Positions 23,394-38,859 of a stretch of DNA of 38,859 nucleotides are shown here, in pieces (the stretch's first letter is position 1; every line of letters begins with the position of its first letter). The notes beneath the pieces are model-generated. The model made no database searches, was not told the DNA's origin, and saw nothing but the letters and a program-made list of their open reading frames with translations. Source of the stretch: an uncultured Nitrospirales bacterium. GTDB lineage: Bacteria > Nitrospirota > JACRHL01. The stretch spans positions 1-38,859 of the forward strand of contig CAZGRJ010000008.1 in the NCBI GenBank assembly GCA_964528115.1. The letters run 5' to 3'. Both the position numbers and the translations under genes were made by a program.

Positions 23394-24110
23394 TTACGGC
23401 TGGCGGGCTTCCTCCTCCTTGAGGAGGGCGGCGGCGGCCTCGTGGTCCACGTGGCGGATGTCGTGCCCGCGGATCATGTAGATTACCATTTCGCAAATGT
23501 TCGTGGCGTGGTCGCCGATCCGCTCCAGGTTCTTGGAGATGTTCGACAGGATGATGTAGCCGCTGATGCCCGGCGGGTTCTCGAGCATGTAGGTGAGGAT
23601 CTCGCGGTAGAGCGAGTGGTACATCTCGTCCACCGAGGCGTCGTGCTCGATCACCTGGATGGCCAGGTCGATATCGCCCCGCGAGAGGGCGTCCAGGGCC
23701 CGCTGGACCTGGGACTGGACCGCCTCGGACATGTTGGACAGGGCCCCCAGGGGATGGATGCCCGTTCCCTGGAGGCGCAGCGCCCCCTCGCTGATGCCCA
23801 CGGCCAGGTCGCCCATGCGCTCCAGGTCCGTGACCACCTTCACCGACGACAGGATGAAGCGCAGGTCCCGCGCGGCCGGCTGGCGCAATACGAGAATCCG
23901 GCGGATCAGCTCGTCGCACTGGACCTCCAGGGCGTTGACCGCCGCGTCGCGCTCGATGGTCCGCTCGGCGAGGGCCGAGTCGCCCGTCATGAGGGCCTGG
24001 GTGGCGCCGGCGATGGCCTTCTCCACCAGGCCCCCCAGGGAGAGGACCTTGGCCTTGAGCTCGGAGAGCTCGTCGTCGAACCGGCGCATGGTGTGGGCCT
24101 TGGTGGCCAT
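23394..24110 (-). CDS. phoU: phosphate signalling complex protein PhoU
   Basis: ATG 24110 inside ORF 23394..24503. Two PhoU repeats are present: MRRFDDELSELKAKV...DLERMGDLAV and ...NLERIGDHATNICEMVIYM. Confidence 0.9.
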   Translation of the reverse strand: MATKAHTMRRFDDELSELKAKVLSLGGLVEKAIAGATQALMTGDSALAERTIERDAAVNALEVQCDELIRRILVLRQPAARDLRFILSSVKVVTDLERMGDLAVGISEGALRLQGTGIHPLGALSNMSEAVQSQVQRALDALSRGDIDLAIQVIEHDASVDEMYHSLYREILTYMLENPPGISGYIILSNISKNLERIGDHATNICEMVIYMIRGHDIRHVDHEAAAALLKEEEARQP

Positions 24111-24145
24111 GGGCGTGCGGGTTGCCTCCTGGTGCGGGTCCGGAC

Positions 24146-25021
24146 TCAGCCGAACCGGCCGGTGATGTAGGCCTCGGTCTGCTCGTTCTGGGGCCGGGTG
24201 AACAGGGCCTCCGTCTCGCCGAACTCCACCAGGCGTCCCAGGTAGAAGAACGCCGTGTAGTCCGACACGCGCCCCGCCTGCTGCATGTTGTGGGTGACGA
24301 TGACCACGGTGAAGCGGCCCTTGAACTCGTCGATCAGCTCCTCGATCTTGCCGGTGGCGATGGGGTCCAGGGCCGAGCACGGCTCGTCCATGAGCAGCAC
24401 CTCGGGCTCCACGGCGATGGCGCGGGCGATGCACAGGCGCTGCTGCTGGCCGCCGGAGAGCTGGGTGCCCTGCTGGTTCAGCATGTCCTTGACCTCGTCC
24501 CACAGGGCGGAGCCCTTCAGGGCCTCCTCCACGCGCCCCTCCAGCTCGCTCTTGGGCATGCCGCCGCGCAGGCGCAGGCCGTAGGCCACGTTGTCGAACA
24601 CGGTCATGGGGAACGGGGTGGCTTTCTGGAAGATCATCCCGATCTTGTGGCGCAGGGAGAGGGCGGGAATGGCCGGGTCCAGGATGTTCACCCCGTCCAG
24701 GAGGATCTCGCCGGTGGCGCGCTGGCCCTTGTAGAGCTCGTACATCCGGTTGTAGGTGCGGATGTGGGTGCTCTTGCCGCAGCCCGAGGGGCCGATGAAG
24801 GCGGTGACCTCGCCGCGGGCAATGTCGAGGGTGTTGTCCGTGAGGGCCTGCTTCCCGCCGTAGTAGAAATTGAGGTCGCGCACGGAGATCTTGGGGTCGG
24901 TGACGGGAGCGGCCTCCTGCACCATGGGCGTGGGGAGCTCGAGGTGCGGCGTCTCCGGCGGGTTCTGGGCGGTGGAGGGGTCTTCGGTCATGGGGTCCCG
25001 GGTCTGTTGGGGGCGGATCAT
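24146..25021 (-). CDS. pstB: phosphate ABC transporter ATP-binding protein PstB
   Basis: Motifs: [11 protein letters not shown], Walker [10 protein letters not shown], signature [14 protein letters not shown], Walker [13 protein letters not shown], and C-terminal [13 protein letters not shown] 25021 is the longest start. ATGs at 24991 and 24925 would give a more E. coli-like length. Confidence 0.9.
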
Positions 25022-25032
25022 TGGTATATACC

Positions 25033-25893
25033 CTACGGGCGGTGGGTCCGGGCGAGCACCAGGCGCGAGGTCACGGTCAGGGCCAGGACCGCCGCCGTGA
25101 TCAGGAAGGCGGCGCCCCAGGCCATGGCGTGCCAGTCGTCGTAGGGGCTCATGGCGTAGTTGAACAGGGTGACGGTCAGGTTCGCCATGGGCTCGTTCAG
25201 GCCGTTCATCCAGTAGGGGCTGTTGAGGGCGGTGAACAACAGCGGCGCCGTCTCCCCCGAGACCCGCGCCACGGCCAGCAGGATCCCCGTGACCATGCCC
25301 GCCGCCGCGGCCCGGTAGATGACCCCCACCATCATCCGCCAGTACGGCGCGCCCAGGGCCAGGGTGGACTCGCGCATCTCGAGCGGCACCAGGCGCAGCA
25401 TCTCCTCCGTGGTCCGGGTGACCACCGGCAGCATGATAATCGCCAGCGACACCGCCCCGGACCAGCCCGAGAAGTTGCCCAGGGGCTTGACCATGACCAG
25501 GTAGACGAACACCCCCACCACGATCGACGGGGCCGACACCAGGATGTCGGACACGTAGCGCACCGCCGCGCCGAACTTGGTCGCGGCGCCGAATTCGGCC
25601 AGGTAGGTGCCCGCCAGAACGCCGATGGGCACCGCCATCAGGGCCGCCACGACGGTCAGGAGCAGGGTCCCGGCGATGGCGTTGGCCAGGCCCCCGCCGC
25701 CCTGGCCGGGGGGGGAGGGGAGCTGGGTGAAGAACGTCCAGTTGATCGCCTGAGTCCCGCGCAGTGCCACGTCGCCCAGGATCCAGACGAGCATCCCCAG
25801 GCCCACGAAGGCGGCCAGGGTGGACAGGGCCATGACCGCGGCGTTGACGTTGCGGCGCCGGGCCGTGGCGGCGGAGTTGGCGATGCCGGCCAT
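25033..25893 (-). CDS. pstA: phosphate ABC transporter permease PstA
   Basis: Multi-pass permease with the EAA-type loop [15 protein letters not shown], and it sits immediately after pstC (TGACATG junction). [10 protein letters not shown] is typical of PstA. Confidence 0.9.
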
Positions 25894-25894
25894 G

Positions 25895-26872
25895 TCAGCT
25901 GCTCCTCGCCGGGGCGGACATGTGCTTCATCCACAGGTTGGCCAGCCCCAGGATGACGAACGTGATCACCGCCAGCACCAGCCCCAGCTCCACCAGCGAG
26001 GCGGTGTAGACGTCGCCGTCCGCCTCGGTGAACTCGTTGGCCAGGGTGGAGGCGATGGAGTTGCCCGGGGCGAACAGGGAGAGCGACAGGCGGTGGGCGT
26101 TGCCGATCACGAAGGTGACCGCCATGGTCTCCCCCAGCGCCCGGCCGAGCCCCAGGAACACGGCGCCGTAGATGCCCTTGCGGCCATAGGGGATCATGAT
26201 GTCCTTCACCACCTCCCAGGTGGTGGCCCCCATGCCGTAGGCCGACTCCTTGAGGGTCGGCGGCACCATCCGGAAGACGTCGCGGGTGACCGCGGCGATG
26301 AAGGGCACGATCATCAGGGCCAGGACCAGGCCCGCGGTGAGCATGCCGATGCCCATCTTGGGGCCCTGGAACAGGGGCATCCAGCCGAACACGGCCGCCA
26401 GCCACGGCTGCACGTGGTCGGCCATGAGGGGGGCCAGGATGAACAGCCCCCACATGCCGTACACGATGCTCGGGATGGCGGCCAGGAGCTCGATGGCCAC
26501 GCCGAACGGGGTCCGGATGCGGACGGGCGCGATCTCGGCCAGGAAGAGGGCGATCCCCAGGCTCACCGGCACCGCCACGACCAGGGCCACGGCGGTGGAG
26601 AGCAGGGTGCCGACGGCGGCGGCCAGGGCGCCGAAATTCTCCGTCACCGGGTTCCAGGCGTCGCTCGTGAGGAAGCTCCAGCCGAACGCCTCGATGGACG
26701 GCCCCGAGGCCCGCCAGAGGACGAAGAACATGGAGCCGAGCAGCAGCAGGATGCCGCCCGCGACGCCCGCGGTCAGGGCCTTGAAGATACGGTCGCCGAA
26801 GGCGCCGCGGGACCGCGAGGCGGCCTTGTCGGGGCCCATGGTGGCGGCGTCCTGCATGGCGGTTGCCGGCAT
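25895..26872 (-). CDS. pstC: phosphate ABC transporter permease PstC
   Basis: GGAGGA lies 5 nt upstream of ATG 26872. Motifs: FGALAAAVGTLLST, IPSIVYGMWGLF, and the EAA loop KESAYGMGATTWEVV. Confidence 0.9.
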   Translation of the reverse strand: MPATAMQDAATMGPDKAASRSRGAFGDRIFKALTAGVAGGILLLLGSMFFVLWRASGPSIEAFGWSFLTSDAWNPVTENFGALAAAVGTLLSTAVALVVAVPVSLGIALFLAEIAPVRIRTPFGVAIELLAAIPSIVYGMWGLFILAPLMADHVQPWLAAVFGWMPLFQGPKMGIGMLTAGLVLALMIVPFIAAVTRDVFRMVPPTLKESAYGMGATTWEVVKDIMIPYGRKGIYGAVFLGLGRALGETMAVTFVIGNAHRLSLSLFAPGNSIASTLANEFTEADGDVYTASLVELGLVLAVITFVILGLANLWMKHMSAPARSS

Positions 26873-26940
26873 CTCAATCCTCCAGGGCGGCTCGCCGCCC
26901 GCGCCAGAAATCCCTGCCCGCTCCCGGCATCACCCGCCCT

Positions 26941-27438
26941 TCAGGGCGCCTCGCGGGAGCCGCGGGCGGATCGGGAGCGCTCGCGGTCGATCGCCTTGAG
27001 CATCACCATCTCGCGCTGGAAGACCATGACGCTCGCGATCCGGAGGGCACCCAGCACCAGAAGCAGGACGCTCATGGCGTAGATCTCGGCGGTGCCGAAC
27101 TCGTGCTCGAAGGTCTTGATCATCAGCTCCCGGAGCATGAACACGATCGCCGCGTCGACGATGAACGTCAGACGCAGCCGCAGGGTGTCGAAGTACTCCA
27201 CCAGCGAGCGCGAGAGCTCCACCAGGACGAACAGCGTCAGGATGTCCGACACCATCGCCAGGTAACGTTCCGCCACCCCCGGCTCCGAGATCAGCTCGAG
27301 CACGGTCAGGAAGAGGCGCGTGGTCCCGATCACCATGCCGAGCATGATGAAGACCAGGATCACTCCGAAGATGACCCCGGTGATCTGGTCGAACCAGACC
27401 TTGGGGTTCAGCCGGAGGTGGCGGAACGGGCGCTCCAT
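26941..27438 (-). CDS. PsiE-like (phosphate-starvation-inducible) small membrane protein
   Basis: 165 aa with four hydrophobic helices: ITGVIFGVILVFIMLGMVIG, YLAMVSDILTLFVLVELS, LTFIVDAAIVFMLRELMI and IYAMSVLLLVLGALRIASVMV. This layout is what I associate with the PsiE family. The assignment is from memory, not from a search. Confidence 0.55.
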   Translation of the reverse strand: MERPFRHLRLNPKVWFDQITGVIFGVILVFIMLGMVIGTTRLFLTVLELISEPGVAERYLAMVSDILTLFVLVELSRSLVEYFDTLRLRLTFIVDAAIVFMLRELMIKTFEHEFGTAEIYAMSVLLLVLGALRIASVMVFQREMVMLKAIDRERSRSARGSREAP

Positions 27439-27485
27439 GGGGGAGCTATGTTACCCCAAGCGGGGCGGCCGTCAGTGCCCGGCGG

Positions 27486-28547
<1,062 letters not shown>

Positions 28548-28628
28548 GACGAAAATCCTTTCGCGTGAATGTGGAGGCCGGGGGCCCCGACGGGTTCTGT
28601 TTGCCGTGCCGGCCTGAGTTTCCGCGGG

Positions 28629-28661
28629 ATCGTAGAGGGGCAACGTTAATGTTTCATGAAG
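28629..28661 (-). promoter_or_regulatory. candidate pstS promoter / Pho-box-like element
   Basis: This is the only AT-rich patch in the 169-nt phoR-pstS spacer. The minus strand reads CTTCATGAAACATTAACGTTGCCCCTCTACGAT. ATGAAA (4/6 to -35) is 17 nt from TACGAT (TAnnnT). TTCAT and TTAAC are offset by 11 nt, as PhoB half-sites are, but the match to the CTGTCAT consensus is poor. Confidence 0.3.
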
Positions 28662-28716
28662 GGCCGGTGAGGACCGCGTGCGGACCGTCGCCCGAGGCGC
28701 GGAGGGGGGGGCCGGG

Positions 28717-30111
28717 TCAGGCCACGGGCAGGTGGATGCGGAACGTGCTCCCTAAGCCCGGGGTGCTCTCGACGCTGGCCCGCCCGCCGTGGGCCAGGCA
28801 GATGTGTTTCACGATGGCGAGCCCCAGGCCCGTGCCCCCCAGCTCGCGGCTGCGGGCCGGGTCCACCCGGTAGAAGCGCTCGAACAGGCGCGGGAGGTGC
28901 TCCGGTTCGATGCCCCGGCCCCGGTCGATGACCTCGATGACGCACTCCCCCCCCTTGGCCACGCCGTGCAGGGTCACGACGCCGCCCTCGGGGCTGTACT
29001 GGATGGCGTTCTGGAGCAGGTTGATGATCGCCTGCTCCAAGAGGGGCGGGTCCATGGGGGCGGTGAGGTCGGCCGGGCAGTCAACCTCCACCCGCACCTC
29101 GCGCGCCAGGGCCTGGGGCTCGCAGGCGGTCTCGGCGGCGGCCAGGACCTGGGCCACGGGGCCCTCGCCCAGGTGCGTCGCGGCGCCCGTGTCCACCTGC
29201 TGCTCGATGCGGGCCAGGCTCAGGGTGTCGGAGATCAGGGCCGCCAGGCGCTCGGACTGGCGCCCGATGATGGCCAGGAAGCGCTCTCTCGCGGGGGGGT
29301 CGTCGCCGGCCCCTTCCAGGAGGGTGTCGGCGGCCCCCTTGATGGCGGTGACGGGGGTCTTGAGCTCGTGGGAGACGTTCGCCACGAAGTCGCGCCGGAC
29401 GTTCTCCAGCTCCCGGATGCGGGTGATGTCGGAGAGCACCACCACCGTCCCCAGGCGCCGACCGCCCCGGTCCGCCAGGCGCGTGCCGCCCACCCGCAGG
29501 TGGCGGGCCCGGGCGCCGGAGCCGAGGGTCACCTGGGTCTCGGCCGGCGCCCCCTCCTTGTCGATGCGCTCCACGAAGCGCAGCAGGTCGGGGTTGCGCA
29601 CCACGTCGGTGAGCGCGCGTCCCTGGTAGGGGACGCCGGTCATGCCGAAGATGCGGGCGGCGGCCGGGTTCAGGGTGAGCACCCGCCCGGCCGTGTCCAC
29701 GGCCAGGACGCCTTCCGTCATGCTGGCGAGGATGGCGTCCTGCTCGGTGCGCTGGCGGGCCACGTCGCCGTGCCTGGCCTCCAGCTGGCGGGCCAGCTCG
29801 TTGAGGGCCTCGTTGAGCTCGGAGAGCTCGCGGATCGGGGCCGACGGCAGGCGCAGACCCCCCTCGCCGGCCGCCAGGCGCGCGGCCTCGGCGGCGGCCT
29901 CCTCCACCGGGCGGGCGATGCGCCAGGCGGCGAGCAGGCCCACGGCCCCCGCCACCAGGCCCGCCACGCCCACCACGGCGCCGATGCCCGACTTCCCCGT
30001 GCCCCCGGTGCCCCCCGTGCCCGCCGTGCCAAAGACCAGCACCACGGCCAGGGCCCCCCAGGTGCACAGGAGCACCGCGGCGCCGATCCGCCAGCGGAGC
30101 CGATCCTGCAC
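28717..30111 (-). CDS. phoR: phosphate regulon sensor histidine kinase PhoR-type (TM-TM-HAMP-PAS-HisKA-HATPase)
   Basis: GTG 30111, 3 nt after the phoB stop. Two TM helices flank a tiny loop. The PAS-like segment is ILASMTEGVLAVD. Kinase motifs are H-box FVANVSHELKTPVTAI, N-box LLQNAIQYSP, G1 DRGRGI and G2 GGTGLGLAIV. Confidence 0.85.
   Translation of the reverse strand: MQDRLRWRIGAAVLLCTWGALAVVLVFGTAGTGGTGGTGKSGIGAVVGVAGLVAGAVGLLAAWRIARPVEEAAAEAARLAAGEGGLRLPSAPIRELSELNEALNELARQLEARHGDVARQRTEQDAILASMTEGVLAVDTAGRVLTLNPAAARIFGMTGVPYQGRALTDVVRNPDLLRFVERIDKEGAPAETQVTLGSGARARHLRVGGTRLADRGGRRLGTVVVLSDITRIRELENVRRDFVANVSHELKTPVTAIKGAADTLLEGAGDDPPARERFLAIIGRQSERLAALISDTLSLARIEQQVDTGAATHLGEGPVAQVLAAAETACEPQALAREVRVEVDCPADLTAPMDPPLLEQAIINLLQNAIQYSPEGGVVTLHGVAKGGECVIEVIDRGRGIEPEHLPRLFERFYRVDPARSRELGGTGLGLAIVKHICLAHGGRASVESTPGLGSTFRIHLPVA
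29998..30030. repeat. imperfect 9-bp tandem repeat (3.7 units) inside phoR
   Basis: CGTGCCCCC / GGTGCCCCC / CGTGCCCGC / CGTGCC encodes GTAGTGGTGGT, the short loop between the two PhoR transmembrane helices. The unit length is a multiple of 3. Confidence 0.6.
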
Positions 30112-30114
30112 GGC

Positions 30115-30801
30115 CTACTCCCGGACGCGGTAGCCGACCCCGCGCACGGTCTCCACCACGTCCCCGGCGGCCCCGAGCTTCTTGCGCAGGGCCGCCACCT
30201 GTACGTCCACGCTGCGCTCGGTCACGGGGTGCCCGATCCCCATGACGGCGTCCACGATCTGGTGGCGGGTGAACACCCAGCCCGGGCGCCGGGCCAGGAA
30301 GTGCAGGATGCGGAACTCGGTGGGGGTGAGCGGCACGGCCTCGCCGTCCACCTCCACCCGGTGCCGGCCCGGGTGGATCGTCACCCCGTGCACCGCGAGG
30401 GGCTGCTCCGGGCCGGGCTCCGGCCCCCCCACGCGCCGGAGGAGCGCCGCCACCCGGGCGAGCAGGACGGCGGGGGAGAACGGCTTGACCATGTAGTCGT
30501 CGGCCCCCAGGTTGAGGCCGGCCACGATGTCGGCCTCGGTGCCCCGGGCGGTGACCATCATGACCGGGACGTTCTGGGTGGCGGGGGTGCGCTTGAGGGC
30601 CCGGGCCACGGACAGGCCGTCCAGCCCGGGGAGCATGAGGTCCAGGACCACCATGTCGGGGGGCGCCTCGCGGCACAGGGCGAGGCCCGCCTCGCCGGTG
30701 GCCGCGGGGGTGACGCGGTACCCCCCCTTCTCCAGGTTGTAGCGGATGAGCTCGAGGATGTCCGGCTCGTCCTCGACCACCAGGATGCGCGCTTCGGCCA
30801 T
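30115..30801 (-). CDS. phoB: phosphate regulon response regulator PhoB (OmpR family)
   Basis: ATG 30801 (AAGGACGGA upstream) inside ORF 30115..30879. The receiver domain shows RILVVEDEPDI...VVLDLMLPGLDG...MVTARG...DDYMVKPF. The winged helix shows LTPTEFRILHFLARRPGWVFTR...VDVQVAALRKKL...VRGVGYRV. Confidence 0.9.
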   Translation of the reverse strand: MAEARILVVEDEPDILELIRYNLEKGGYRVTPAATGEAGLALCREAPPDMVVLDLMLPGLDGLSVARALKRTPATQNVPVMMVTARGTEADIVAGLNLGADDYMVKPFSPAVLLARVAALLRRVGGPEPGPEQPLAVHGVTIHPGRHRVEVDGEAVPLTPTEFRILHFLARRPGWVFTRHQIVDAVMGIGHPVTERSVDVQVAALRKKLGAAGDVVETVRGVGYRVRE

Positions 30802-30817: not shown

Positions 30818-30870
30818 GTGTGCGGGGCGCATGATCCCACGACCACGCCCCGGTCGTCGGTCCCGCACAC
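30818..30870 (-). other. two-tier GC-rich hairpin in the phoB 5' leader
   Basis: The outer 9-bp stem pairs 30818-30826 (GTGTGCGGG) with 30862-30870 (CCCGCACAC). The inner stem pairs 30837-30844 with 30852-30860 (6 bp, a 1-nt bulge, then 2 bp) around a 7-nt loop. The 3' arm on the mRNA ends about 7 nt before the AAGGA ribosome-binding site. Confidence 0.35.
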
Positions 30871-30893
30871 AAACCGCACCGGAACCGAACCGG

Positions 30894-30902
30894 ATTCTAA
30901 CA
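30894..30902 (-). promoter_or_regulatory. candidate extended -10 promoter for phoBR (TGTTAGAAT)
   Basis: The minus strand reads GCTGTTAGAATCC, i.e. TGn + TAGAAT (5/6 to TATAAT), about 95 nt upstream of the phoB ATG. There is no good -35, consistent with an extended -10 or activator-dependent promoter. Confidence 0.3.
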
Positions 30903-30937: not shown

Positions 30938-32119
30938 TCAGGGCACGGTGAAGTTGAGCGTCGAGGTGTGGGTCGGCCCGCCGCCCACCTGGGTGTGGGT
31001 GAAGACGATGGTCACGTCCATGCCGCTGATGGCGCCGTTGAAGTCGAACTCGTCGAAGGTGTAGGTGCCGCCGGCCGGAATCTGGACCGTCTTGCACAGC
31101 GTGGTCAGGCTGGCGGGGGTGGACTGGTCGCCGTTCGGCGTGCCGCAGCTGAAGTTGTCCCACACGTCGGTGCCGCCGTTGCAGGAGGAGGCGGTGCCGC
31201 CGCTCTGGACCTGCTGCAGGTCGCGCCAGTTGTAGCTCCAGCTCACGTCGATCTGGGTGATCTCGATGTCCACCGTGTCGTTGTTGGTCAGGACGAAGGC
31301 CGTCTCGTCGTTGCCGCCGCACTGGTACAGCTCGCCCGGCACCATGGTCAGCACGTCGTCCGAATCGCCGCCCGAGGCGCCGCTCCCGCCGCCGCCGGGG
31401 GGGCTCCAGACCATGGCGAAGTACACGTCGTCCCCCGTGGGCCCGGTGCCCACGCCGGCACCGTCCGGACCCAGGCTGTAGACCACCGCGGACTCGTCGT
31501 TGTTGTAGGCATACATGAGGCTGTTGCCCCAGGCGTCCGTCTGCCAGGCGGCCGGGATCGTGTAGGCGGAGGGCGCCAGGGTGGGGCTGGTGCCGTAGAC
31601 GTCGCCCGCGACGAGCTTCAGGCGCTCGTAAGTGTCGCGGATCCGGCGCTCCACGGTCTCGTAGTCCTGGACCACCGTGAGGGCGATGTCGTCCGTCGTG
31701 CCCGCCGTCTGGTCCTGCCCCGGGCTCGTGAGCACGGCGGTGGGGTCGCCGGCGGTGTAGGCGTAGTCGATCAGGCCACCCCAGGCGTCCAGGGCGTAGT
31801 CGCCCGCGGCCCACTGGGCGGTGAGGTAGGGGCCGCTCCAGCCCGGGGCGCCGATGGTGTCGGCCTGGAGCTCGCCCAGGTCGGCCACGTCGTCGCCGGT
31901 GTCGGGGGGGAAGGCGTCCACGTCGCGGTGGTAGGCGCGCAGGGCGTCGGCGATCAGCTCCAGGTGGTCCTCGGTGGCGAAGCGCCGCTGCTGGTCCACC
32001 CGGGCCGCGATGAGGGGGGCCAGGGCCCCCGCCAGGACGGCGAGGACGGCGATCACCACGATCACCTCGATCAGGGTGAAGCCCGCGCCGCGGGCGGTTC
32101 GGCGCGGTTCAGGCGGCAT
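30938..32119 (-). CDS. giant GspG-like pseudopilin/pilin (393 aa) with prepilin N-terminus, duplicated GspG-type head and unassigned C-terminal Cys-containing domain
   Basis: ATG 32119 inside ORF 30938..32383, with an 11-nt overlap on the secretin stop. The class III signal is MPPEPRRTARGAG|FTLIEVIVVIAVLAVLAGALAPLI (G-1, F+1, E+5). Two GspG-like blocks are DAWGGLIDYAY...SPGQDQTAGTTDDI and DAWGNSLMYAY...LGPDGAGVGTGPTGDDV. A Gly/Ser linker is followed by a ~138-aa tail with 4 Cys. Confidence 0.8.
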   Translation of the reverse strand: MPPEPRRTARGAGFTLIEVIVVIAVLAVLAGALAPLIAARVDQQRRFATEDHLELIADALRAYHRDVDAFPPDTGDDVADLGELQADTIGAPGWSGPYLTAQWAAGDYALDAWGGLIDYAYTAGDPTAVLTSPGQDQTAGTTDDIALTVVQDYETVERRIRDTYERLKLVAGDVYGTSPTLAPSAYTIPAAWQTDAWGNSLMYAYNNDESAVVYSLGPDGAGVGTGPTGDDVYFAMVWSPPGGGGSGASGGDSDDVLTMVPGELYQCGGNDETAFVLTNNDTVDIEITQIDVSWSYNWRDLQQVQSGGTASSCNGGTDVWDNFSCGTPNGDQSTPASLTTLCKTVQIPAGGTYTFDEFDFNGAISGMDVTIVFTHTQVGGGPTHTSTLNFTVP

Positions 32120-34391
32120 GGCCGAAGCCGGTGCCCGTCCCCGCGGTCGGCACGGGCGTCGGCGCGGACGGGGCCTCGGCGGGTCGGGGCGGCGCCGGGG
32201 TATGGGCCGCAGGCGCGGCGTCTGCCGGTGCCGTGCCGGCGGTTGCGGATTTGCCTTCGGGCCCGGCCAGGAGGGCGTCGATGGCGGCGATCCGGCGCCG
32301 CACCTGGAGGACGAACTCGGGGTCGCGCTCGCTGATCTTCGGCAGGGCCGAGACGTACAGCATCCGGGCCGCCTCCAGGCCACCCTCGGAGAGCAGGATC
32401 TCGGCCCGGTCCACCACCGCCTCCACGGCCTGGGGGTCGATGCGGGCGGCCTCGGCGAAGGCGGCCTCGGCCAGCTCGGGCTGGCCCGCCCCCAGGTAGG
32501 CGACGCCCAGGTTCGTGATCAGGCCCGCGTTCTTGGGGAAGTACTCGATGCCCTGCTTGAGCACGCGGATCGCCGGGTCGAACGCCCCGGCGGCGGTGAA
32601 GGCCAGGGCGATGCGGTTGACCCCCTGGGCGTGCTCGGGGCGCGTCTTGGCCAGCTCGGACCAGAGCTGCAGGGCCCGGGTGGTCTGGGCCCGCTGGGCG
32701 TACAGGAGGGCCAGCTGGAAGCGGGCCTCGGAGAGGTTCGGGTCCAGGCGCAGGGCCTTCTGCCACTCCTGCTCGGCGCGCTCGCCCTCGCCCTGGCGCG
32801 CGAACCCGGTGCCGGCATCCAGGTGGTAGCGGGCCAGCCCCGAGCGCGTGACCGGGCTGAAGCCGCCCCCGGGGACGGGGGGCGTGCCCCCGGCGGGAAA
32901 GCCGAGCGGGGCGAAGCCGCCCGTGGGCGATTCCTGCACCAGGTCGAAGCTGCGCCCGTGGAGGATGCCGAAGTGGAACGGCCGGGCCACGTCGGTCAGG
33001 CCCTCGATGCCGTCCGAGACGGCCTGGGCGATGCGCTGGGTGTCCAGGACCGTGGGGGTCAGCAGGATCAGCAGCTCGACCCGGTCCTCCTTCTGGTCCG
33101 TGCTGCGGAACAGGGGACCGATGAGGGGCAGGCTGCCCAGGCCCGGGACCTTGCTCACGTCCTCGGTGCGGCGCTTCTGGATGAAGCCGCCCAGGACGAT
33201 GCTCTCGCCGTCGCGCACCTTGAGGACCGTCTCGGTCTCGCGCTCGTTGAGGATCGGCAGGGTCTGGAGGCCGTCGGGGGTGGTGATCTCGCCGGACACC
33301 TCCGTCACCTTCGGGTGGACCAGGATCGTCAGGCCGCCGTCGGCGCCGATCTGGGGGGTCACCTCCAGGCGAATGCCGGCCTCCTTGAAGCTCACGTCGT
33401 AGCGCGCGATCGTGTTGGTGGGGTCGATCTCGCCCGAGAGGACCTCCCGGCTGACCACGGGCACCTGCTCGGTGACGTGGATGACCGCCGGGTTGTTGTT
33501 CAGGGTGGCGACCCGGGGCGAGGACAGCATGTTCACCTGGCCCTGGGCGTGCAGGGCCTCCAGCAGGGCGGAGAAGTCCCCGGTGCGGAACAGGCCGAAC
33601 TGGATGCCGTTCACGTTCGGGGCGAAGGACTGGAGCAGGGCGTTGCCCCCTGCGGCGGCGCCGGAGACGCCGGGGCCGATCCCCAGCGCGCGCGGGAAGA
33701 GGCCGTAGTTGACCCCCATCTGGAAGCTGTCGTTGAGGGTGACCTCGATGACCTTGGCCTCGATCAGCACCTGGCGCCCGATGATCTCCTCCAGGTGGTG
33801 GAGGTGGGCCTCCACCTGGTCCAGGTTCTCCGGGCGGTCGGCGACGATCAGCGTCCCCGTGGCGGGGCTCACGGTGACCTTGCCCTCGGGGGTGAGCAGG
33901 GCCTTGACCTGGGTGCCGATGTCGTCCCACAGGGCGGTGTAGCCGGCGCCGGCCACGTAGTCCAGGTGGAAGACCCGGCGGTCGTTCTGGCCGATGCGGG
34001 CGTAGCCGTCCTGGTAGGTCATGGCCAGGCCCTGGCTGCGCAGGACGGCGGCCAGGACCTGCTCCGGGGTGGCGCCCAGGAAGTCGGCCGTGATCCGGCC
34101 CTGGACGCCGTCGTCCACCATCACGTTCATGTCGCTGCCCTTGAACAGCAGGCGGATGGCGTCGGCCACGGGGGTGTCGCGGAACCGGAACTTGCCCGCC
34201 GTCCGGGTGGGCGCCGCGGGGGCGGCGGGCACGGTGCCGGGCGGGAGGGCGTCGGCCACCACCAGGGGGGTGAGGGGCTTCGGCAGGTCGGGGCCTTGTG
34301 CGTGGCGCGGGGCCGGGCCGTGGGCGCAGCCCGACAGGAGCACGGCCACGGCGGCCCAGAGGGCGAGGATGCGCTTCAGGGCGGAGGTCAA
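32109..34391 (-). CDS. secretin (GspD/PilQ/MshL family) lipoprotein fused to C-terminal TPR repeats
   Basis: TTG 34391 is preferred (TTGA overlap with upstream stop). It gives LTSALKRILALWAAVAVLLSGC, a lipoprotein signal with lipobox LSGC. ATG 34442 is the ORF-track start. N0/N1-like segments are PVADAIRLLF... and TLIVADRPENLDQVE. The secretin core runs RQVLIEAKVIEVTLND...LSSPRVATLNNNPAVI...GIRLEVTPQI...SKVPGLGSLPLIGPLFR...ELLILLTPTVL. TPR-like repeats cover residues ~535-725 (nt ~32268-32840), followed by a Pro/Ala-rich tail. Confidence 0.85.
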   Translation of the reverse strand: MTSALKRILALWAAVAVLLSGCAHGPAPRHAQGPDLPKPLTPLVVADALPPGTVPAAPAAPTRTAGKFRFRDTPVADAIRLLFKGSDMNVMVDDGVQGRITADFLGATPEQVLAAVLRSQGLAMTYQDGYARIGQNDRRVFHLDYVAGAGYTALWDDIGTQVKALLTPEGKVTVSPATGTLIVADRPENLDQVEAHLHHLEEIIGRQVLIEAKVIEVTLNDSFQMGVNYGLFPRALGIGPGVSGAAAGGNALLQSFAPNVNGIQFGLFRTGDFSALLEALHAQGQVNMLSSPRVATLNNNPAVIHVTEQVPVVSREVLSGEIDPTNTIARYDVSFKEAGIRLEVTPQIGADGGLTILVHPKVTEVSGEITTPDGLQTLPILNERETETVLKVRDGESIVLGGFIQKRRTEDVSKVPGLGSLPLIGPLFRSTDQKEDRVELLILLTPTVLDTQRIAQAVSDGIEGLTDVARPFHFGILHGRSFDLVQESPTGGFAPLGFPAGGTPPVPGGGFSPVTRSGLARYHLDAGTGFARQGEGERAEQEWQKALRLDPNLSEARFQLALLYAQRAQTTRALQLWSELAKTRPEHAQGVNRIALAFTAAGAFDPAIRVLKQGIEYFPKNAGLITNLGVAYLGAGQPELAEAAFAEAARIDPQAVEAVVDRAEILLSEGGLEAARMLYVSALPKISERDPEFVLQVRRRIAAIDALLAGPEGKSATAGTAPADAAPAAHTPAPPRPAEAPSAPTPVPTAGTGTGFGHAA

Positions 34392-34882
34392 TTCCCGTCC
34401 TCCTCCGCCTCGCCCGACACCGGGGGCAGGGGGACGCGCCACACCCGGCCGCCCCGGGCGAGGGTCACCCCGTTGTCTTGCACGCGCACCACTTGGATGT
34501 CACCGACATACCCCCCCTCGCGCACCGGCTCGCCGTCGATCAGCGCCGCTCGCACGCCGCCGTGGACCGCGATCCCCTGCAGGTGCACGGGGTCGGTTCC
34601 CTTCCCCATCGTTTCGGTCGCCCGCACCGGGAACTTGCCCCGGAACTGCTCGCCGGCGGTCATGAACGGGTTGCGGGCGTCGTCCGCGAGGGCCGTGGGC
34701 ACGGCGCTCGCGACGGACGGCTGTGCGGGGTGCCACGGCAGGACGGCCGGCGCCGCCTGCGGCGCCGTCCGGGTGACGGGCTGGGCCGGGTTCTTGCGGG
34801 CCCGGAAATGGTGCAGGTCCCACGCCCCCACGACCACGAGCAACAGGATCAGGGCCCCGATGAAGCGCCGGTCGCGCAGCAT
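34388..34882 (-). CDS. PilP/GspC/MshK-like inner-membrane-anchored secretin-interacting protein
   Basis: 164 aa with the N-terminal anchor FIGALILLLVVVGAW and an ARNPF motif (compare the R-D/N-P-F of PilP/MshK). The C-terminal beta-rich block is LQGIAVHGGVRAALIDGEPVREGGYVGDIQVVRVQDNGVTL. It sits immediately upstream of the secretin. Confidence 0.55.
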   Translation of the reverse strand: MLRDRRFIGALILLLVVVGAWDLHHFRARKNPAQPVTRTAPQAAPAVLPWHPAQPSVASAVPTALADDARNPFMTAGEQFRGKFPVRATETMGKGTDPVHLQGIAVHGGVRAALIDGEPVREGGYVGDIQVVRVQDNGVTLARGGRVWRVPLPPVSGEAEEDGN

Positions 34883-34883
34883 C

Positions 34884-35375
34884 TCAGGCGCCCCCCAGGA
34901 GGTCGAGGCGCAGGGCGACCTCGATCCGGCCGCGGTCGGCGCGCTCCAGGTCCACGCCGATGACGGTCACGGCCGGGGCCGACGCGGCGACGTCCGCCAG
35001 GACCCGGGCCACGGCGGGGAAGCCGGCATCGAAGAACAGGGTGAGCGGCTGGGCGGAAATGCTGCCGCGCGGGACCCGCTGGCCCAGCCGGTACTGCACG
35101 TCGCCCACGCCCTGGCGGCGCACGGCGTCCACCACGGCGGCGGCGCCCGCCGGCAGGGCCGCGGCGGTGGGGATCGGGACCGTTCCCGGCGCGGCGGCGG
35201 GACCGAGCCCGGCGTGGCCCCGGTCGCCGAGGTCGGCGCCGATCCGGTCCGCCTCGGCCCGCAGGGCGTCGGCCTTGCGCGGCAGCAGGTACACGCCCGA
35301 CAAGGCGAGGCCCAGGGTCAGGACGGCCGTGACGCCCAGGACGGAGCGGATGGCGACGCTACGCGGGATCCGCAT
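34884..35375 (-). CDS. GspM/PilO-like bitopic assembly protein
   Basis: 163 aa with the N-terminal TM helix SVLGVTAVLTLGLALSGVYLL, a short helical segment KADALRAEADRIG, and a C-terminal ~80-aa globular region. There is no diagnostic motif. The call rests on size, topology and synteny between the GspL-like and PilP-like genes. Confidence 0.45.
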   Translation of the reverse strand: MRIPRSVAIRSVLGVTAVLTLGLALSGVYLLPRKADALRAEADRIGADLGDRGHAGLGPAAAPGTVPIPTAAALPAGAAAVVDAVRRQGVGDVQYRLGQRVPRGSISAQPLTLFFDAGFPAVARVLADVAASAPAVTVIGVDLERADRGRIEVALRLDLLGGA

Positions 35376-37083
35376 CGCCGGGCTCCTTCAGGGTGAGGTG
35401 GACGGAAAAGGGGGTGACGCCGCCCGTGTCCGGGGGCCCGCCCTTCGGGCTGTTCGTTGGACTGTTCATGGGGCTCAGGTCTACGGCGGCGAAACGGCCC
35501 GTGGCCTCCAGGGCCGAGACCAGCGCGCCCACGGCGCCCAGGGCCTCGGCGGGCCCGGCCAATACCTCACCGCTCGCCGCCACGTGCCAGGCGCCCTTCT
35601 CCCAGGTGACGTAGGCCGTCAGCAGCCGGGCCGCGGGCGGCATGGCGGCCCCCAGGTCGGCCAGCAGGGCGGTGGCGGGCAGGGGGGACGGCAGGCCGTC
35701 GGGCAGGGGGTGGCGGACGCCGTCGGGGGTCACCAGGGGCGTGGGGCCGGAGGCGCCGGACCGGGCCGCGTGCAGGCGCGCCTGCTCCGCCTGGAGCGAG
35801 GCCAGGCGGGCGGCCTCCTCGCCCACGGCGCGGGCCTGGAAGACGACCCCCATCCCGGCCGAGAGCAGGGCGAAGACGAGCAGGGCGGCGGCGGCGTAGG
35901 CGAGGGAAGTGGGCACCTCGCGCCGGCGCAGCTCCTCGGGCACCAGGGTCACGGCGCCGGAGGGCCGCGTGAGCCCCGAAAGGGCCGCCCCCATGGCGAT
36001 CACCATGCGCGGGTCCGGGGCGCCGCGCCAGGTGATGTCCGGGCGGTGGCGGAGCAGGGGGAGCACCTCGGCCCGCAGCTGGCGCGAGAGCCATTCCACG
36101 AAGGGGGCATCGTCCGCCACCGCGCCGGTGAGGACCACCCGGGCGACCTCCCCCGCCTTGAGGTTCTTCTTGGCGTACAGGTGGGTGCGGTGGATCTCCT
36201 CCGTCAGGCGCTCCCAAGCCGCGGGGATCTGCGGGGCGGGGGCCGGGGCGGGCGCCGCCTCGGCCGCGGCGAAGGGGTCCGCCGGCGCCTCGGCGGGGGG
36301 CTCCGGCGGTGAGGCCGCGCCGGTCTCGGAGGACCCGTCCAACGCCGTAGGTCCGTCCAAATCAAACGCGAGGTCGATCTCGCCGAACATCTGGGCCACC
36401 TCGGCGTCCAGGTCGGCGGCCCCCTGGGCGGGTGCCGGGGGCGGCGGGGCGGGCGCCTCCTCGCCGCGGCGGCCGAGGATGCCCCGGTTCATGTGGCGGT
36501 CGTACACGTGGGCGCCGGAGCGGGTCAGGATCAGGTCGGCGTTGTGGTCCCACACCTCGATCAGGGACATCAGCTCGCCCGTCTCCCGGTCGGCGGGGCG
36601 GGTCATGGCCATGATGAACGAGGTGGCGTGGGGCACCACGTCCGAGAGGCTCAGGCCCGCCTCGGTGGCCTCCGCGGCCAGGGTCTCCACGACGTTCCGG
36701 GGCATGGCCCGCACCTCCACGTCGCGCAGGCCGTCGCCGCGCGCCCGCCGGACCGTCCAGGCCACCGCGTCGCCGGGCCGGGCCCCGGCCTCCCGCGCCA
36801 CCACCCGGGCCAGGTCGCGCCGCGCCAGGGCGGGGACGGTCACGGTGCGGTGGCGGAAGTCGGTGTCCACCAAAGAGAAGGTGGCGGAGATGCCCTTCGC
36901 GCCCATGTCGGCGGCCACCCGCGGCAGGGTGGCGCGCTCGGCGGCGGCCAGGATGCGGGTCGCCACGACCTCGTAGCCGGCGCCCTTGCGCGCCACCAGG
37001 CACAGGTTGATCCAGTGCTTGCCCACGGCCACCCCCAGGTGGCTCTGGGCGCGCCCGCCGCCGGGTGTCAGGCGGAAGGCCAT
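35359..37083 (-). CDS. GspL-like / fused PilM-PilN (MshI-like) assembly protein with Pro/acidic insertion
   Basis: ATG 37083 (TGATG junction with gspF stop) inside ORF 35359..38574. The upstream 497 codons of that ORF overlap gspF out of frame. The N-terminal actin-like (PilM/GspL-cyto) pattern is HLGVAVGKHWINLCLV...LIEVWDHNADLILTRSG...VVLTGAVADDAPFVEWL. It is interrupted by a ~85-aa Pro/Ala/Asp/Glu-rich insert (residues ~205-288, nt ~36220-36471). A TM helix LAYAAAALLVFALLSAGMGVVF follows, then a periplasmic PilN/GspL-like tail. Confidence 0.6.
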   Translation of the reverse strand: MAFRLTPGGGRAQSHLGVAVGKHWINLCLVARKGAGYEVVATRILAAAERATLPRVAADMGAKGISATFSLVDTDFRHRTVTVPALARRDLARVVAREAGARPGDAVAWTVRRARGDGLRDVEVRAMPRNVVETLAAEATEAGLSLSDVVPHATSFIMAMTRPADRETGELMSLIEVWDHNADLILTRSGAHVYDRHMNRGILGRRGEEAPAPPPPAPAQGAADLDAEVAQMFGEIDLAFDLDGPTALDGSSETGAASPPEPPAEAPADPFAAAEAAPAPAPAPQIPAAWERLTEEIHRTHLYAKKNLKAGEVARVVLTGAVADDAPFVEWLSRQLRAEVLPLLRHRPDITWRGAPDPRMVIAMGAALSGLTRPSGAVTLVPEELRRREVPTSLAYAAAALLVFALLSAGMGVVFQARAVGEEAARLASLQAEQARLHAARSGASGPTPLVTPDGVRHPLPDGLPSPLPATALLADLGAAMPPAARLLTAYVTWEKGAWHVAASGEVLAGPAEALGAVGALVSALEATGRFAAVDLSPMNSPTNSPKGGPPDTGGVTPFSVHLTLKEPGDADPA

Positions 37084-38300
37084 CAGCGCGCGCCCCCGAT
37101 GGACGAGATGATCGTATAGAGGGTGTAGAAGACCGTCAGGGCGATGCCGCCCACGACGACGCCGAGCACGATGATGATCGCCGGCTCCAGGATCGACAGG
37201 GCCAGGCGGATGCTGGCCTGAACCTCGCGCCGCAGGAACTCGGTGGCGCGGAACAGGGAATCCGGCAGGCGCCCGCCCTCCTCGCCCACGGCCACCATTT
37301 GCAGGGACAGGGGCGGAAAGACGCCGGTGGCCTCCAGGGCGTCGGCCAGGCGGCCGCCGCCCACCACCCGCTCCTCCACCTCGGCCACGCGCTCGGCCAG
37401 GTGGCGGTTCTCCACCACCCCCTGGGAGAGGGTCAGCGCCCGGGCGATGTCCACCCCGGCGTCCAGGAGCAGGCCCAGGCAGTACATGAGCTGGGAGACG
37501 CGGATCAGCCGGATCGTCGTGCCGAACAGGGGCACCTTGAGCACCGCCCGGTCGAGCCACCGGGCGACGGGCTCGCGCCGCCGCAGGACGCCGAACAGGG
37601 CGCCGCCCAGGACGAGCGCGGCGAGCATGAACGGCCAGTAGGCCCCGAAGAACGCGCTGATCCCCAGCAGCACCCGGGCCGCCGCCGGGATGGGCGCCCC
37701 CGAGCCGAAGATGCCCACCAGGCGGGGCAGGACGAAGGTGAGCAGGAACACGATCAGGGCGAGCACGAGGGAGACGATCACGACCGGGTACACGGTGGCC
37801 TGCCTCAGGTCCCGCGCCAGGCCGTCCTGCCACTCCAGGTAGGAGTTCAGGCGGCCCAGCACCGTGTCCAGGCGGCCGGTCTCCTCGCCGGTGGCGACCA
37901 TGGAGACGTAGAGCGGGCTGAAGCACCTGGGGTAGCGCCCCAGGGCGTGGGCCAGGCCCTCGCCGCTCTCCAGGCCGTGGGCCACGTCCTCGAGCATGTG
38001 GGCGATGCCGGGGTCGGGCACGTGGTGGCCGAAGCCGCGCAGCGCCTCGAGCACCGGGATGCCGGCTCCCGCGGCGGTCTCCATGTGGGCGGTGAAGGTC
38101 ATGCGCTCGCGCCGCCCCATGCGCACCTTGGGCGGGCGCACGTGGATGGGCCTGGCCTCGATGAGGATGCCGCCGTCGCCACGGATGCGGGCCGCGAGGC
38201 CGGCCTCGTCCGGGGCCGCCATGGTCCCGGTGCGGGTCCGGCCGTCGGCGCCCGCCATGCGGTAGTGGAAGTCCGGCATGGCGATGCTCCCGGCGCCCAC
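37083..38300 (-). CDS. gspF: type II secretion system F family platform protein (GspF/PilC)
   Basis: Two T2SSF repeats are present: GIPVLEALRGF...LESGEGLAHALGRYPRCFSPLYVSMVATGEETGRLDTVL and GVDIARALTLS...VVGGGRLADALEATGVFPPLSLQMVAVGEEGGRLPDSL. The protein has three TM segments. GTG 38300 is the longest start and ATG 38279 is an alternative. Confidence 0.9.
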   Translation of the reverse strand: MGAGSIAMPDFHYRMAGADGRTRTGTMAAPDEAGLAARIRGDGGILIEARPIHVRPPKVRMGRRERMTFTAHMETAAGAGIPVLEALRGFGHHVPDPGIAHMLEDVAHGLESGEGLAHALGRYPRCFSPLYVSMVATGEETGRLDTVLGRLNSYLEWQDGLARDLRQATVYPVVIVSLVLALIVFLLTFVLPRLVGIFGSGAPIPAAARVLLGISAFFGAYWPFMLAALVLGGALFGVLRRREPVARWLDRAVLKVPLFGTTIRLIRVSQLMYCLGLLLDAGVDIARALTLSQGVVENRHLAERVAEVEERVVGGGRLADALEATGVFPPLSLQMVAVGEEGGRLPDSLFRATEFLRREVQASIRLALSILEPAIIIVLGVVVGGIALTVFYTLYTIISSIGGAR

Positions 38301-38303
38301 GCG

Positions 38304-38859
38304 CTAGGTTCCGGTCCCTTCCGGCGCCGCGACGGGCTCCGCGCGCCGGCCCGAGTGGGCGGGACGGGCGGGCTCGCCCCCGACCTCCGGGCGCTTGAGC
38401 ATCAGGCGGCGCTCGGCCACGCGGCGCACCTCCGCCAGGGTGGTCTCGCCCCGGCGGGCCTTCTCGTAGCCGTCCTGGCGGATGTCCACCATGCCCTCCT
38501 GGCGCGCGGCCTCGGTGATGGCCGAGGCGGAGGCGCGGGCCATGACCAGGTCCGTGACGGCGGTGCTCATGCACAGGAACTCCGCGATCGGGATGCGGCC
38601 CAGGTAGCCGGTCTGGTTACAGCGCGGGCAGCCCACGGCGGACACGAAGTCGCCCGGCTCCGGGTCGTGGGCGAAGGCGGCGAACAACTCCGCGTCGGGG
38701 GTCATGGGCACCTTGCAGTGGGCGCAGGGGCGGCGCACCAGGCGCTGGGAGATGACGGCGATGATCGTGGACGGCAGCAGGTAGGGGGCGACCCCCATAT
38801 CCACCAGGCGCGGCAGGGCGCTGGCGGCGTCGTTGGTGTGCAGGGTGGAGAGCACCAGG
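38304..38859 (-). CDS. gspE: GspE/PilB family secretion ATPase, C-terminal part (5' end outside window)
   Basis: The ORF is open to the window edge. It has the His-box region [21 protein letters not shown], then [12 protein letters not shown], and the tetracysteine motif CAHC...[13 protein letters not shown] ~35-aa Pro/Arg-rich C-terminal tail follows. Confidence 0.9.

Follow-up and report, generated by a model that had tools for sequence, protein, structure and literature searches.

A two-headed GspG-type pilin with a pilin-associated beta-sandwich domain, a candidate filament-tip subunit in a compact Nitrospirota operon

CofB and TcpB are minor pilins of roughly 400-520 amino acids (aa), and the toxin-coregulated pilus (TCP) of Vibrio cholerae and colonization factor antigen III (CFA/III) of enterotoxigenic Escherichia coli (ETEC) are systems that have a single minor pilin. 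These large minor pilins initiate assembly and are located at the tip of type IVb pili (PMC5207764, PMC6048534), and in CofB a flexible linker separates the pilin domain from beta-rich domains at the C-terminus (PMC8179133). Modular pilins as a whole have been catalogued at more than 1,200 proteins with 264 architectures, and an exposed location at the tip is assumed for them (Raynaud et al. 2021, PMC8179133); in PilB and PilC of Streptococcus sanguinis, a class III pilin module is joined by a linker to a folded module (vWA in PilB, lectin in PilC) that is presumed to be presented at the tip. In addition, PilX1 of Saccharibacteria TM7x is a minor pilin whose C-terminal beta-jelly-roll-like accessory domain is absent from domain databases, and it has been proposed as a tip adhesin (PMC11623550). 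The present analysis concerns a related architecture, a 393-aa GspG-type pilin encoded on contig CAZGRJ010000008.1 (assembly GCA_964528115.1) of an uncultured Nitrospirales bacterium; the whole stretch of 38,859 nucleotides that was analysed is called the window hereafter. Judged from its sequence and its relatives, this protein is a real, conserved prepilin-type filament subunit, of either a pilus or a secretion machine, and the analysis leans, with moderate confidence, towards a modular type-4-filament subunit of low abundance that would present a binding module at the tip. The gene and the parts of its product are as follows.

30938..32119, minus strand: gene of the 393-aa modular GspG-type pilin, stop codon included (open reading frame (ORF) translation, Pfam, NCBIfam and homologues)
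32081..32119, minus strand: leader peptide, residues 1-13 (MPPEPRRTARGAG), ending in the invariant G13 (N_methyl and TIGR02532)
32006..32080, minus strand: hydrophobic alpha1-N segment, residues 14-38, with E18 (E+5); the filament-core assembly interface
31682..32005, minus strand: head 1, residues 39-146, GspG-type, with a DAWGG...TTDDI motif (Pfam T2SSG, PDB, AlphaFold2)
31406..31681, minus strand: head 2, residues 147-238, a second GspG-type head (hhalign, AlphaFold2, sub-threshold PDB matches)
31355..31405, minus strand: Gly/Ser/Asp-rich flexible linker SPPGGGGSGASGGDSDD, residues 239-255 (predicted local distance difference test score, pLDDT, <50 at residues 241-251)
30941..31354, minus strand: C-terminal beta-sandwich, residues 256-393, with four invariant Cys (AlphaFold2 model)

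The reading frame is supported by a third-codon-position GC of 0.93, uniformly high along the ORF, in a window whose overall G+C content (~72%) is the source of many spurious ORFs. Translation is taken to start at the ATG at 32119, which matches the N-termini of all homologues and the Joint Genome Institute (JGI) gene calls; a longer GTG-initiated ORF extending to 32383 was rejected as the pilin start, as it falls inside the secretin gene. Since 393 aa is far above the usual pilin size, a frameshift, an assembly chimera or a mis-called ORF joining a pseudopilin gene to a downstream gene had to be weighed. However, a search of 5.8 billion proteins recovered ~20 full-length relatives (388-403 aa) that keep the architecture down to 46% identity (range 46-91%), and the identical 393-aa gene was assembled twice independently, once in a JGI contig and once by Logan; together, these results exclude fusion, frameshift and chimera. 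The evenly high third-position GC and the pLDDT of 96.8 reached by the model of the C-terminal domain point the same way, and an artefact is exceedingly improbable. The first-pass annotation of this DNA had named separately encoded homologues as the mark of such a fusion; the homologues found are not split. At one related locus (L091, 4199-6585), two tandem modular-pilin paralogues of 394 and 396 aa follow the secretin gene, which suggests diversification of the tip subunit.

The N-terminus carries the class III signal that had been proposed earlier, with G-1, F+1 and E+5: the motif GFTLIE occupies residues 13-18, and G13, F14 and E18 are invariant in an alignment of 20 homologues. The first-pass annotation had suggested hmmscan with PF07963 and PF08334, and both families score above their cut-offs, Pfam N_methyl (PF07963) at 27.2 bits (cut-off 21.2) and T2SSG (PF08334) at 40.1 bits (cut-off 21); TIGR02532 reaches 26 bits against 16.3. 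Prepilin-peptidase cleavage is accordingly predicted before F14. The alpha1-N segment is the best-conserved region of the 393-aa family (mean pairwise identity 75%), and the alpha1 helix spans residues 16-67 in the AlphaFold2 model. The type IV pilin superfamily motif is present and T2SSE and T2SSF proteins are encoded in the same, syntenic operon; assembly into a filament is presumed.

Like GspG (PF08334, TIGR01710; PDB 5wda, 3fu1), the protein combines a class III signal with F+1 and E+5, and both of its heads share the motif of the GspG calcium-loop region, D-x-W-G...S-x-G-x-D...DD-I. The T2SSG match falls into two stretches, the better of which covers residues 40-144, and the GspG structure 5wda matches residues 14-146 with an E-value of 2.3e-7. 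In the full-length AlphaFold2 model (20 sequences, mean pLDDT 83.5), head 1 consists of three strands after the alpha1 helix, with strands at residues 118-150, and head 2 has its own amphipathic helix (residues 153-177) and three strands. Head 2 is devoid of a hydrophobic alpha1-N segment and would therefore be unable to enter the filament core itself. Compared with each other by hhalign, residues 36-146 and 147-238 align over the DAWG...DDI block with a probability of 95% and an E-value of 2.8e-8. When head 2 alone was searched against the PDB, EpsG/GspG came out on top but below threshold (E 0.45-0.8), and head 1 alone gave no PDB match; since these single-head searches are weak or empty, the claim of two heads rests on the two Pfam stretches, the hhalign comparison and the model. 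On this basis, the earlier description of two sequence-related GspG-type modules holds, and the positions given for the DAWGG...DDI (residues 111-145) and DAWGN...GDDV (residues 195-232) motifs, the linker and the four Cys residues are all exact. Mean pairwise identity of the heads is 65-70% within the family. The linker, already regarded as flexible, corresponds to the low-confidence segment of the model; its Gly-rich character is common to all aligned homologues, and the W-S-P-P-G-G-G linker entry and the four Cys are invariant or nearly so.

Duplication of GspG-type heads is seen in other proteins as well: P0022 (373 aa) contains three T2SSG stretches in one chain and P0023 (273 aa) contains two. 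GspG-type heads can therefore double, and even triple, within a chain, which bears on how bulky subunits are fitted at filament tips. A scan of genome contigs with the full-length alignment returned mostly ordinary GspG proteins and no family members (0), the pattern GFTL[IV]EV[IV]V being generic; pilins of Planctomycetota and Kuenenia matched through residue ~219-234. Further multi-head or modular GspG-like proteins are encoded at loci L018, L025, L031 and L042, and P0025 (322 aa, Nitrospiraceae) has one GspG-like head followed by a different, Cys-rich C-terminal domain.

The C-terminal domain contains all Cys residues of the protein (positions 267, 313, 325 and 342), which are expected to pair in two disulfides. 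Modelled alone from 17 sequences, it forms a ten-strand beta-sandwich with a pLDDT of 96.8 and a predicted template modeling score (pTM) of 0.90. No sequence match to it was obtained in Pfam, NCBIfam or the PDB, and Foldseek searches with the domain and the full-length model against the PDB, and also the BFVD viral structure library, returned generic Ig-like sandwiches only (TM <=0.5, best E 4e-4). These included the TXNIP/arrestin N-lobe, TTHA1873, TRAP-alpha, DsbD-N, PapD-like chaperones and Als adhesins, from none of which a function was drawn. A profile built from the Nitrospirota family, in contrast to these named-family searches, recovered 69 matches at E <=1e-3 (17 at <=1e-10) among 1.84 billion representative proteins. 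Pilin-type N-termini occur in ~47 of the 69, and the others are mostly either incomplete sequences or giant repeat proteins with a weak, partial match. In a set of 50 carriers that included three fragments and was scored with a permissive class III filter, 43 have the domain at the extreme C-terminus. Alignment of 75 domain copies gives a common signature of N279, W294, W320, G326-x-P-x-G-x-Q332, F360 and F373; the four Cys are confined to the Nitrospirota clade and are lacking in Patescibacteria copies. As judged by these profile matches, the domain is an unnamed family found almost only on prepilin-type proteins. The first-pass annotation had recognised no motif in this module, which stands insofar as no named family matches; the module nonetheless recurs as a pilin-associated one. 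What is new here is a domain of about 120-140 residues, confidently folded in the model, on pilins of distant Nitrospirota and Patescibacteria, and it represents a candidate tip receptor or adhesin for their filaments. No literature describing this domain or this Nitrospirota system was found.

The nearest carriers outside the 393-aa family are Nitrospirota/Leptospirillia proteins of ~1,100 aa (P0032, P0035 and P0036), which combine a prepilin N-terminus, a PilW/GspJ-like start, an Invasin_D3/Big_1 stalk and a Cys-bearing C-terminal domain at the extreme C-terminus; P0032 and P0035 are encoded within minor-pilin clusters of the FimU/PilV/PilW/PilX type. Most other carriers are either 270-300 aa long or 400-780 aa long with two or three tandem copies, and these shorter proteins have class III signal-like N-termini and pilin modules resembling XpsI/GspI/PilV. 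The Patescibacteria carriers belong to Paceibacterota, Wolfebacteria, Peregrinibacteria, Gracilibacteria and Magasanikbacteria, and one, of the ~275-aa type, is encoded within a secretin-less type IV pilus operon. Type IV pili of Patescibacteria are thought to mediate attachment to host bacteria. PilX1 of TM7x can be likened to these proteins by description, as a Patescibacteria minor pilin with a beta-rich accessory domain, and many Patescibacteria pilins carry the C-terminal domain described here; unlike the 393-aa system, the Patescibacteria systems are without a secretin and their domain copies are without the four Cys. Within the 393-aa family the C-terminal domain is the fastest-evolving folded region (mean pairwise identity 50%, compared with 65-75% elsewhere), as would fit an exposed binding module. 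The metagenome scan was repeated with an alignment of head 2 and the linker, the C-terminal domain alone offering no conserved 7-10-mer.

The pilin gene is the last of an operon whose order is ATPase, GspF, 574-aa protein, 163-aa protein, 164-aa protein, secretin-tetratricopeptide repeat (TPR) fusion and 393-aa pilin.

32109..34442, minus strand: secretin (STN/N0, Secretin_N, Secretin) with a fused C-terminal TPR region (Pfam/NCBIfam)
34388..34882, minus strand: 164-aa membrane-anchored protein, PilP/GspC/MshK-type by position and appearance only, with a faint T2SSB match
34884..35375, minus strand: 163-aa GspM/PilO-like protein (weak T2SSM_b match)
35359..37083, minus strand: 574-aa protein with no Pfam match, in a GspL or PilM-PilN-like position (faint Amuc_1101 PilM-like match)
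37083..38300, minus strand: GspF/PilC-type platform protein (Pfam T2SSF 1.8e-52; TIGR02120 300.7 bits, cut-off 424)
38304..38858, minus strand: GspE/PilB/MshE-type ATPase, C-terminal 184 aa, cut by the window end (T2SSE match)

The gene order is identical in a related Nitrospirota metagenome-assembled genome (L001) and at loci L004, L086 and L096; the gene of the 164-aa protein is syntenic, and the secretin-TPR fusion is kept, in all related loci. The fused region comprises ~200 residues of TPR with sub-threshold matches to TPR lipoproteins of the PilW/PilF, Tgl and PrsT types, and it looks like a built-in pilotin or MshN-like partner. The secretin itself has N0 plus one further N-domain only, and its best NCBIfam score is for MshL (TIGR02519, 200.9 bits), which lies below the cut-off of 250.2 and is nearly equalled by GspD (198) and PilQ (194). 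MSH gene clusters have the order mshIJKL(M)N, which the succession of 574-aa, 163-aa, 164-aa, secretin and TPR genes resembles, with MshL as the best secretin match. Unlike in MSH systems, however, secretin and TPR region form a single protein, the pilins resemble GspG rather than MshA, MshB/C/D/O/P/Q are absent and the MshL cut-off is not reached.

According to the first-pass annotation, the 393-aa protein was the only pilin-like product of the operon. This impression arose because the window ends inside the ATPase gene: wherever the 5' end is seen, the operon is headed by a gene for a single-head GspG-like pilin of ~205 aa, with the ATPase gene next in line (L001, L004, L096 and L086, the last with its first-pilin locus cut by the contig end). 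The contigs of the window organism itself were searched for this gene, and none is long enough to reach it. The first pilin carries a single T2SSG head, its alpha1-N segment is nearly identical to that of the 393-aa pilin, and its gene has a long upstream intergenic region and a GGGGAG Shine-Dalgarno sequence; it is the better candidate for the major subunit. No GspH/I/J/K minor pseudopilins are encoded in the window, L001, L004 or L096, and no retraction ATPase is encoded in the locus. With two pilins, no GspH-K and a secretin-TPR fusion, this operon might serve as a tractable minimal system for how a type-4 filament starts assembly. The operon ATPase of related loci has an MshEN N-domain, and a gene encoding a response regulator with PAS, GGDEF and EAL domains lies immediately upstream of the operon in L001 (1-1420) and L004 (1-1480). 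The MshEN-type domain is known to bind cyclic di-GMP (c-di-GMP) in MshE, and c-di-GMP control of the filament operon is possible.

Several features favour a tip position for the 393-aa protein. Its ATG overlaps the secretin stop codon by 11 nt and is not preceded by a well-spaced Shine-Dalgarno sequence; this translational coupling to the secretin gene is the reason for inferring that the protein is made in small amounts, and the last place of its gene in the operon, the hairpins that come after it (L001, L086) and the separate phoB promoter are taken as further signs of low abundance. This coupling, the poor ribosome-binding site and the bulk of the protein argue for a tip subunit, and the presence of the C-terminal domain on minor-pilin-type carriers elsewhere argues for a minor or tip role. 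In the proposed sequence of events, a prepilin peptidase whose gene lies elsewhere would process the precursor in the inner membrane, cutting behind G13 and N-methylating F14. Loading into a filament would then fall to the operon's own GspE/GspF/L-M-like machinery, co-assembly with the ~205-aa pilin being mediated by the shared alpha1-N segment, and the canonical ~205-aa GspG-like pilin from the operon 5' end would form the filament bulk. The 393-aa protein would probably be the first to enter and so come to lie at the tip, singly or as part of a small cap. There, head 2 and the tethered, disulfide-stabilised beta-sandwich may face outward and leave the way through the secretin clear. Contact with the ligand would then be made by the beta-sandwich, acting as an adhesin or as a receptor for a surface, glycan or protein. 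Regarding possible ligands, the mature 393-aa protein is strongly acidic (pI ~4.05, net charge about -37, only two Lys), and net charge ranges from -12 to -39 across family members, whereas the first pilin is near neutral. A DNA-uptake receptor was judged unlikely, since the pI of ~4.05 and the net charge of -37 argue against DNA binding; cation, mineral or basic-protein ligands would be compatible with the acidity.

In function, the 393-aa protein would resemble CofB and TcpB: it is likewise a large minor-pilin candidate, its proposed role is that of an initiator or adaptor at the tip, and its operon pairs one canonical pilin with this one large modular pilin. With CofB it also shares the order of pilin domain, flexible linker and beta-rich C-terminal part. 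In contrast to those systems, the machinery here is of the GspE/F/secretin-TPR type and not type IVb, and the second GspG-like head is without a counterpart. As in modular pilins, the AlphaFold2 model contains an N-terminal pilin module and a linked folded module. The extra module of modular pilins is not pilus-specific, whereas the C-terminal domain described here resides almost only on prepilin-type proteins (69 matches). Unlike in S. sanguinis PilB and PilC, moreover, the pilin module is GspG-type and duplicated, the grafted sandwich is pilin-restricted, and the host is a diderm with a secretin. The first-pass annotation considered a filament subunit with its own passenger domain an unusual solution, which was overstated in view of the modular pilins catalogued to date (>1,200 proteins in 264 architectures; PMC8179133). 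The idea of a passenger-bearing subunit is already known; what is new is the domain family, the doubled head and a constant neighbourhood of Pho genes.

Some observations weigh against this assignment or limit it. Neither the PDB profile search nor Foldseek detected any sequence or fold similarity to CofB or TcpB, so that the analogy is functional only. The C-terminal domain has only generic structural matches, and the long flexible linker would in principle permit placement along the filament body. Operon position and an absent Shine-Dalgarno sequence are weak proxies for abundance. Processing is assumed, and no Peptidase_A24 prepilin peptidase was detected among the scanned window ORFs. Furthermore, bona fide pilins can share the GspG-like fold (PMC5131608); for this reason, a pilus and a secretion pseudopilus are indistinguishable here on fold.

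An alternative is that the 393-aa protein is the major subunit of a decorated filament, in which every subunit would bear a second head and a tethered sandwich and the ~205-aa pilin would be minor or priming. This reading draws on the GspG-like nature of head 1, GspG being the major pseudopilin type, on a flexible linker that could place the extra domains on the filament surface, on the two tandem paralogues of L091 and on the strong conservation of the 393-aa family. It conflicts, however, with the single-head GspG-like pilin that heads the operon in every locus with a visible 5' end, with a 393-aa gene that is coupled to the secretin gene and poorly equipped with a ribosome-binding site of its own, and with the minor-pilin-type carriers on which the C-terminal domain is found elsewhere. 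Moreover, ~25 kDa of extra mass per subunit would, given the established dimensions of secretins and pili, make the filament much wider than the secretin channel. The TIGR01710 score is 62.5 bits against a cut-off of 88.85, and the protein differs from GspG (~140 aa; TIGR01710 model length 134) in its 393 aa, two heads, extra domain, separate single-head pilin and lack of GspH-K; on score, size and operon content alike, it is not a GspG equivalog. A decorated filament is thus unlikely, and the major-subunit role implied by the first-pass annotation is less likely than a minor or tip role.

A second alternative involves the genes that follow the pilin gene. Downstream of it lies a Pho block (23394-30801, minus strand) encoding PhoB-like, PhoR-like (HAMP-PAS-HisKA), PstS, PsiE, PstC, PstA, PstB and PhoU proteins. 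A PhoB-type regulator gene is found directly 3' of the pilin gene in 8/8 loci with downstream flank, phoR is next wherever the contig is long enough, and several loci have pst genes further on. The Hxc type II secretion cluster of Pseudomonas fluorescens flanks and exports the PstS-like DING protein Psp (PMC2225411). By this precedent, the 393-aa protein might cap a type II secretion-like periplasmic pseudopilus that stays inside the cell, its tip binding an exported protein, for which a Pho-regulon product such as a PstS/DING-like protein or a phosphatase is a possible candidate, or docking to the secretin and pushing cargo out. Both pilins being GspG-type, the absence of a retraction ATPase from the locus, the coupling of the pilin start to the secretin gene and the conserved phoB, phoR and pst succession are in keeping with such a cap. 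On the other hand, neither GspH/I/J/K nor a PDZ-bearing GspC accompanies the operon, the secretin has a single N-domain besides N0 and finds its best, sub-threshold match in MshL, and the neighbourhood is without a conserved candidate substrate.

The expression signals also tell against a secretion cap coupled to the Pho genes. An extended -10 promoter of its own precedes phoB after the pilin gene in the window, L001, L004 and L086, and hairpins stand between the pilin gene and phoB (3' of the pilin gene in L001 and L086). Four Pho-box-like half-sites of the [CT]-x-CAC type with 11-bp spacing lie upstream of pstS in the window (~28645-28682, minus strand) and also in L086, while a crude four-half-site pattern detected no such repeats upstream of the first pilin gene in L001 and L004. 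Overall, a pseudopilus cap is rather unlikely. Pho regulation of the pilus operon is conceivable but unsupported, given the missing repeats by the first pilin gene and the separate extended -10 of phoB: the Pho adjacency is conserved, and co-regulation with the filament operon is hypothetical. A similar periodic array lies in the phoB leader (~30864-30901) on the opposite, plus strand, just past the extended -10 (TGTTAGAAT). In the intergenic region after the pilin gene of L001 (11183-11496), two copies of a ~35-nt strong-hairpin element (GGATGTCGC[A/G]AAAGGCCATCCGTGGCC...) were noted, which may be a terminator or a small repeat element.

Returning to a tip-located 393-aa subunit, the invariant phosphate-starvation-regulon neighbourhood suggests a testable link between the filament and phosphorus scavenging. 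In its strongest form, which is doubtful and quite improbable as it stands, the operon would be a phosphorus-acquisition filament, a compact two-pilin machine whose genes are tied to phoBR and, in loci with enough flank, to pstSCAB-phoU. The acidic double-headed tip subunit would capture a phosphate-bearing target, for example the surface of a calcium phosphate or iron phosphate mineral, or else an exoprotein of the Pho regulon such as a phosphatase or PstS/DING-like binder. If true, the presence of the C-terminal domain on minor pilins of Patescibacteria and Nitrospirota would mark a general, undescribed class of tip receptors. At locus L087, a PHO4-family phosphate transporter gene (9671-10741) follows the minor-pilin cluster of the 1,106-aa P0032 (Leptospirillia), a second phosphate neighbour that is possibly coincidental.

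The remainder of the window (1-23300) is occupied by a large exopolysaccharide-type cluster encoding a pyruvyl transferase, several GT2 and GT1/GT4 glycosyltransferases, a hexapeptide acyltransferase, a methyltransferase, a sulfotransferase, an AsnB-type amidotransferase and an MBOAT and SGNH pair (AlgI/AlgJ-like O-acetylation). The same region also holds genes for an S58 peptidase and a phosphorylase-like protein.

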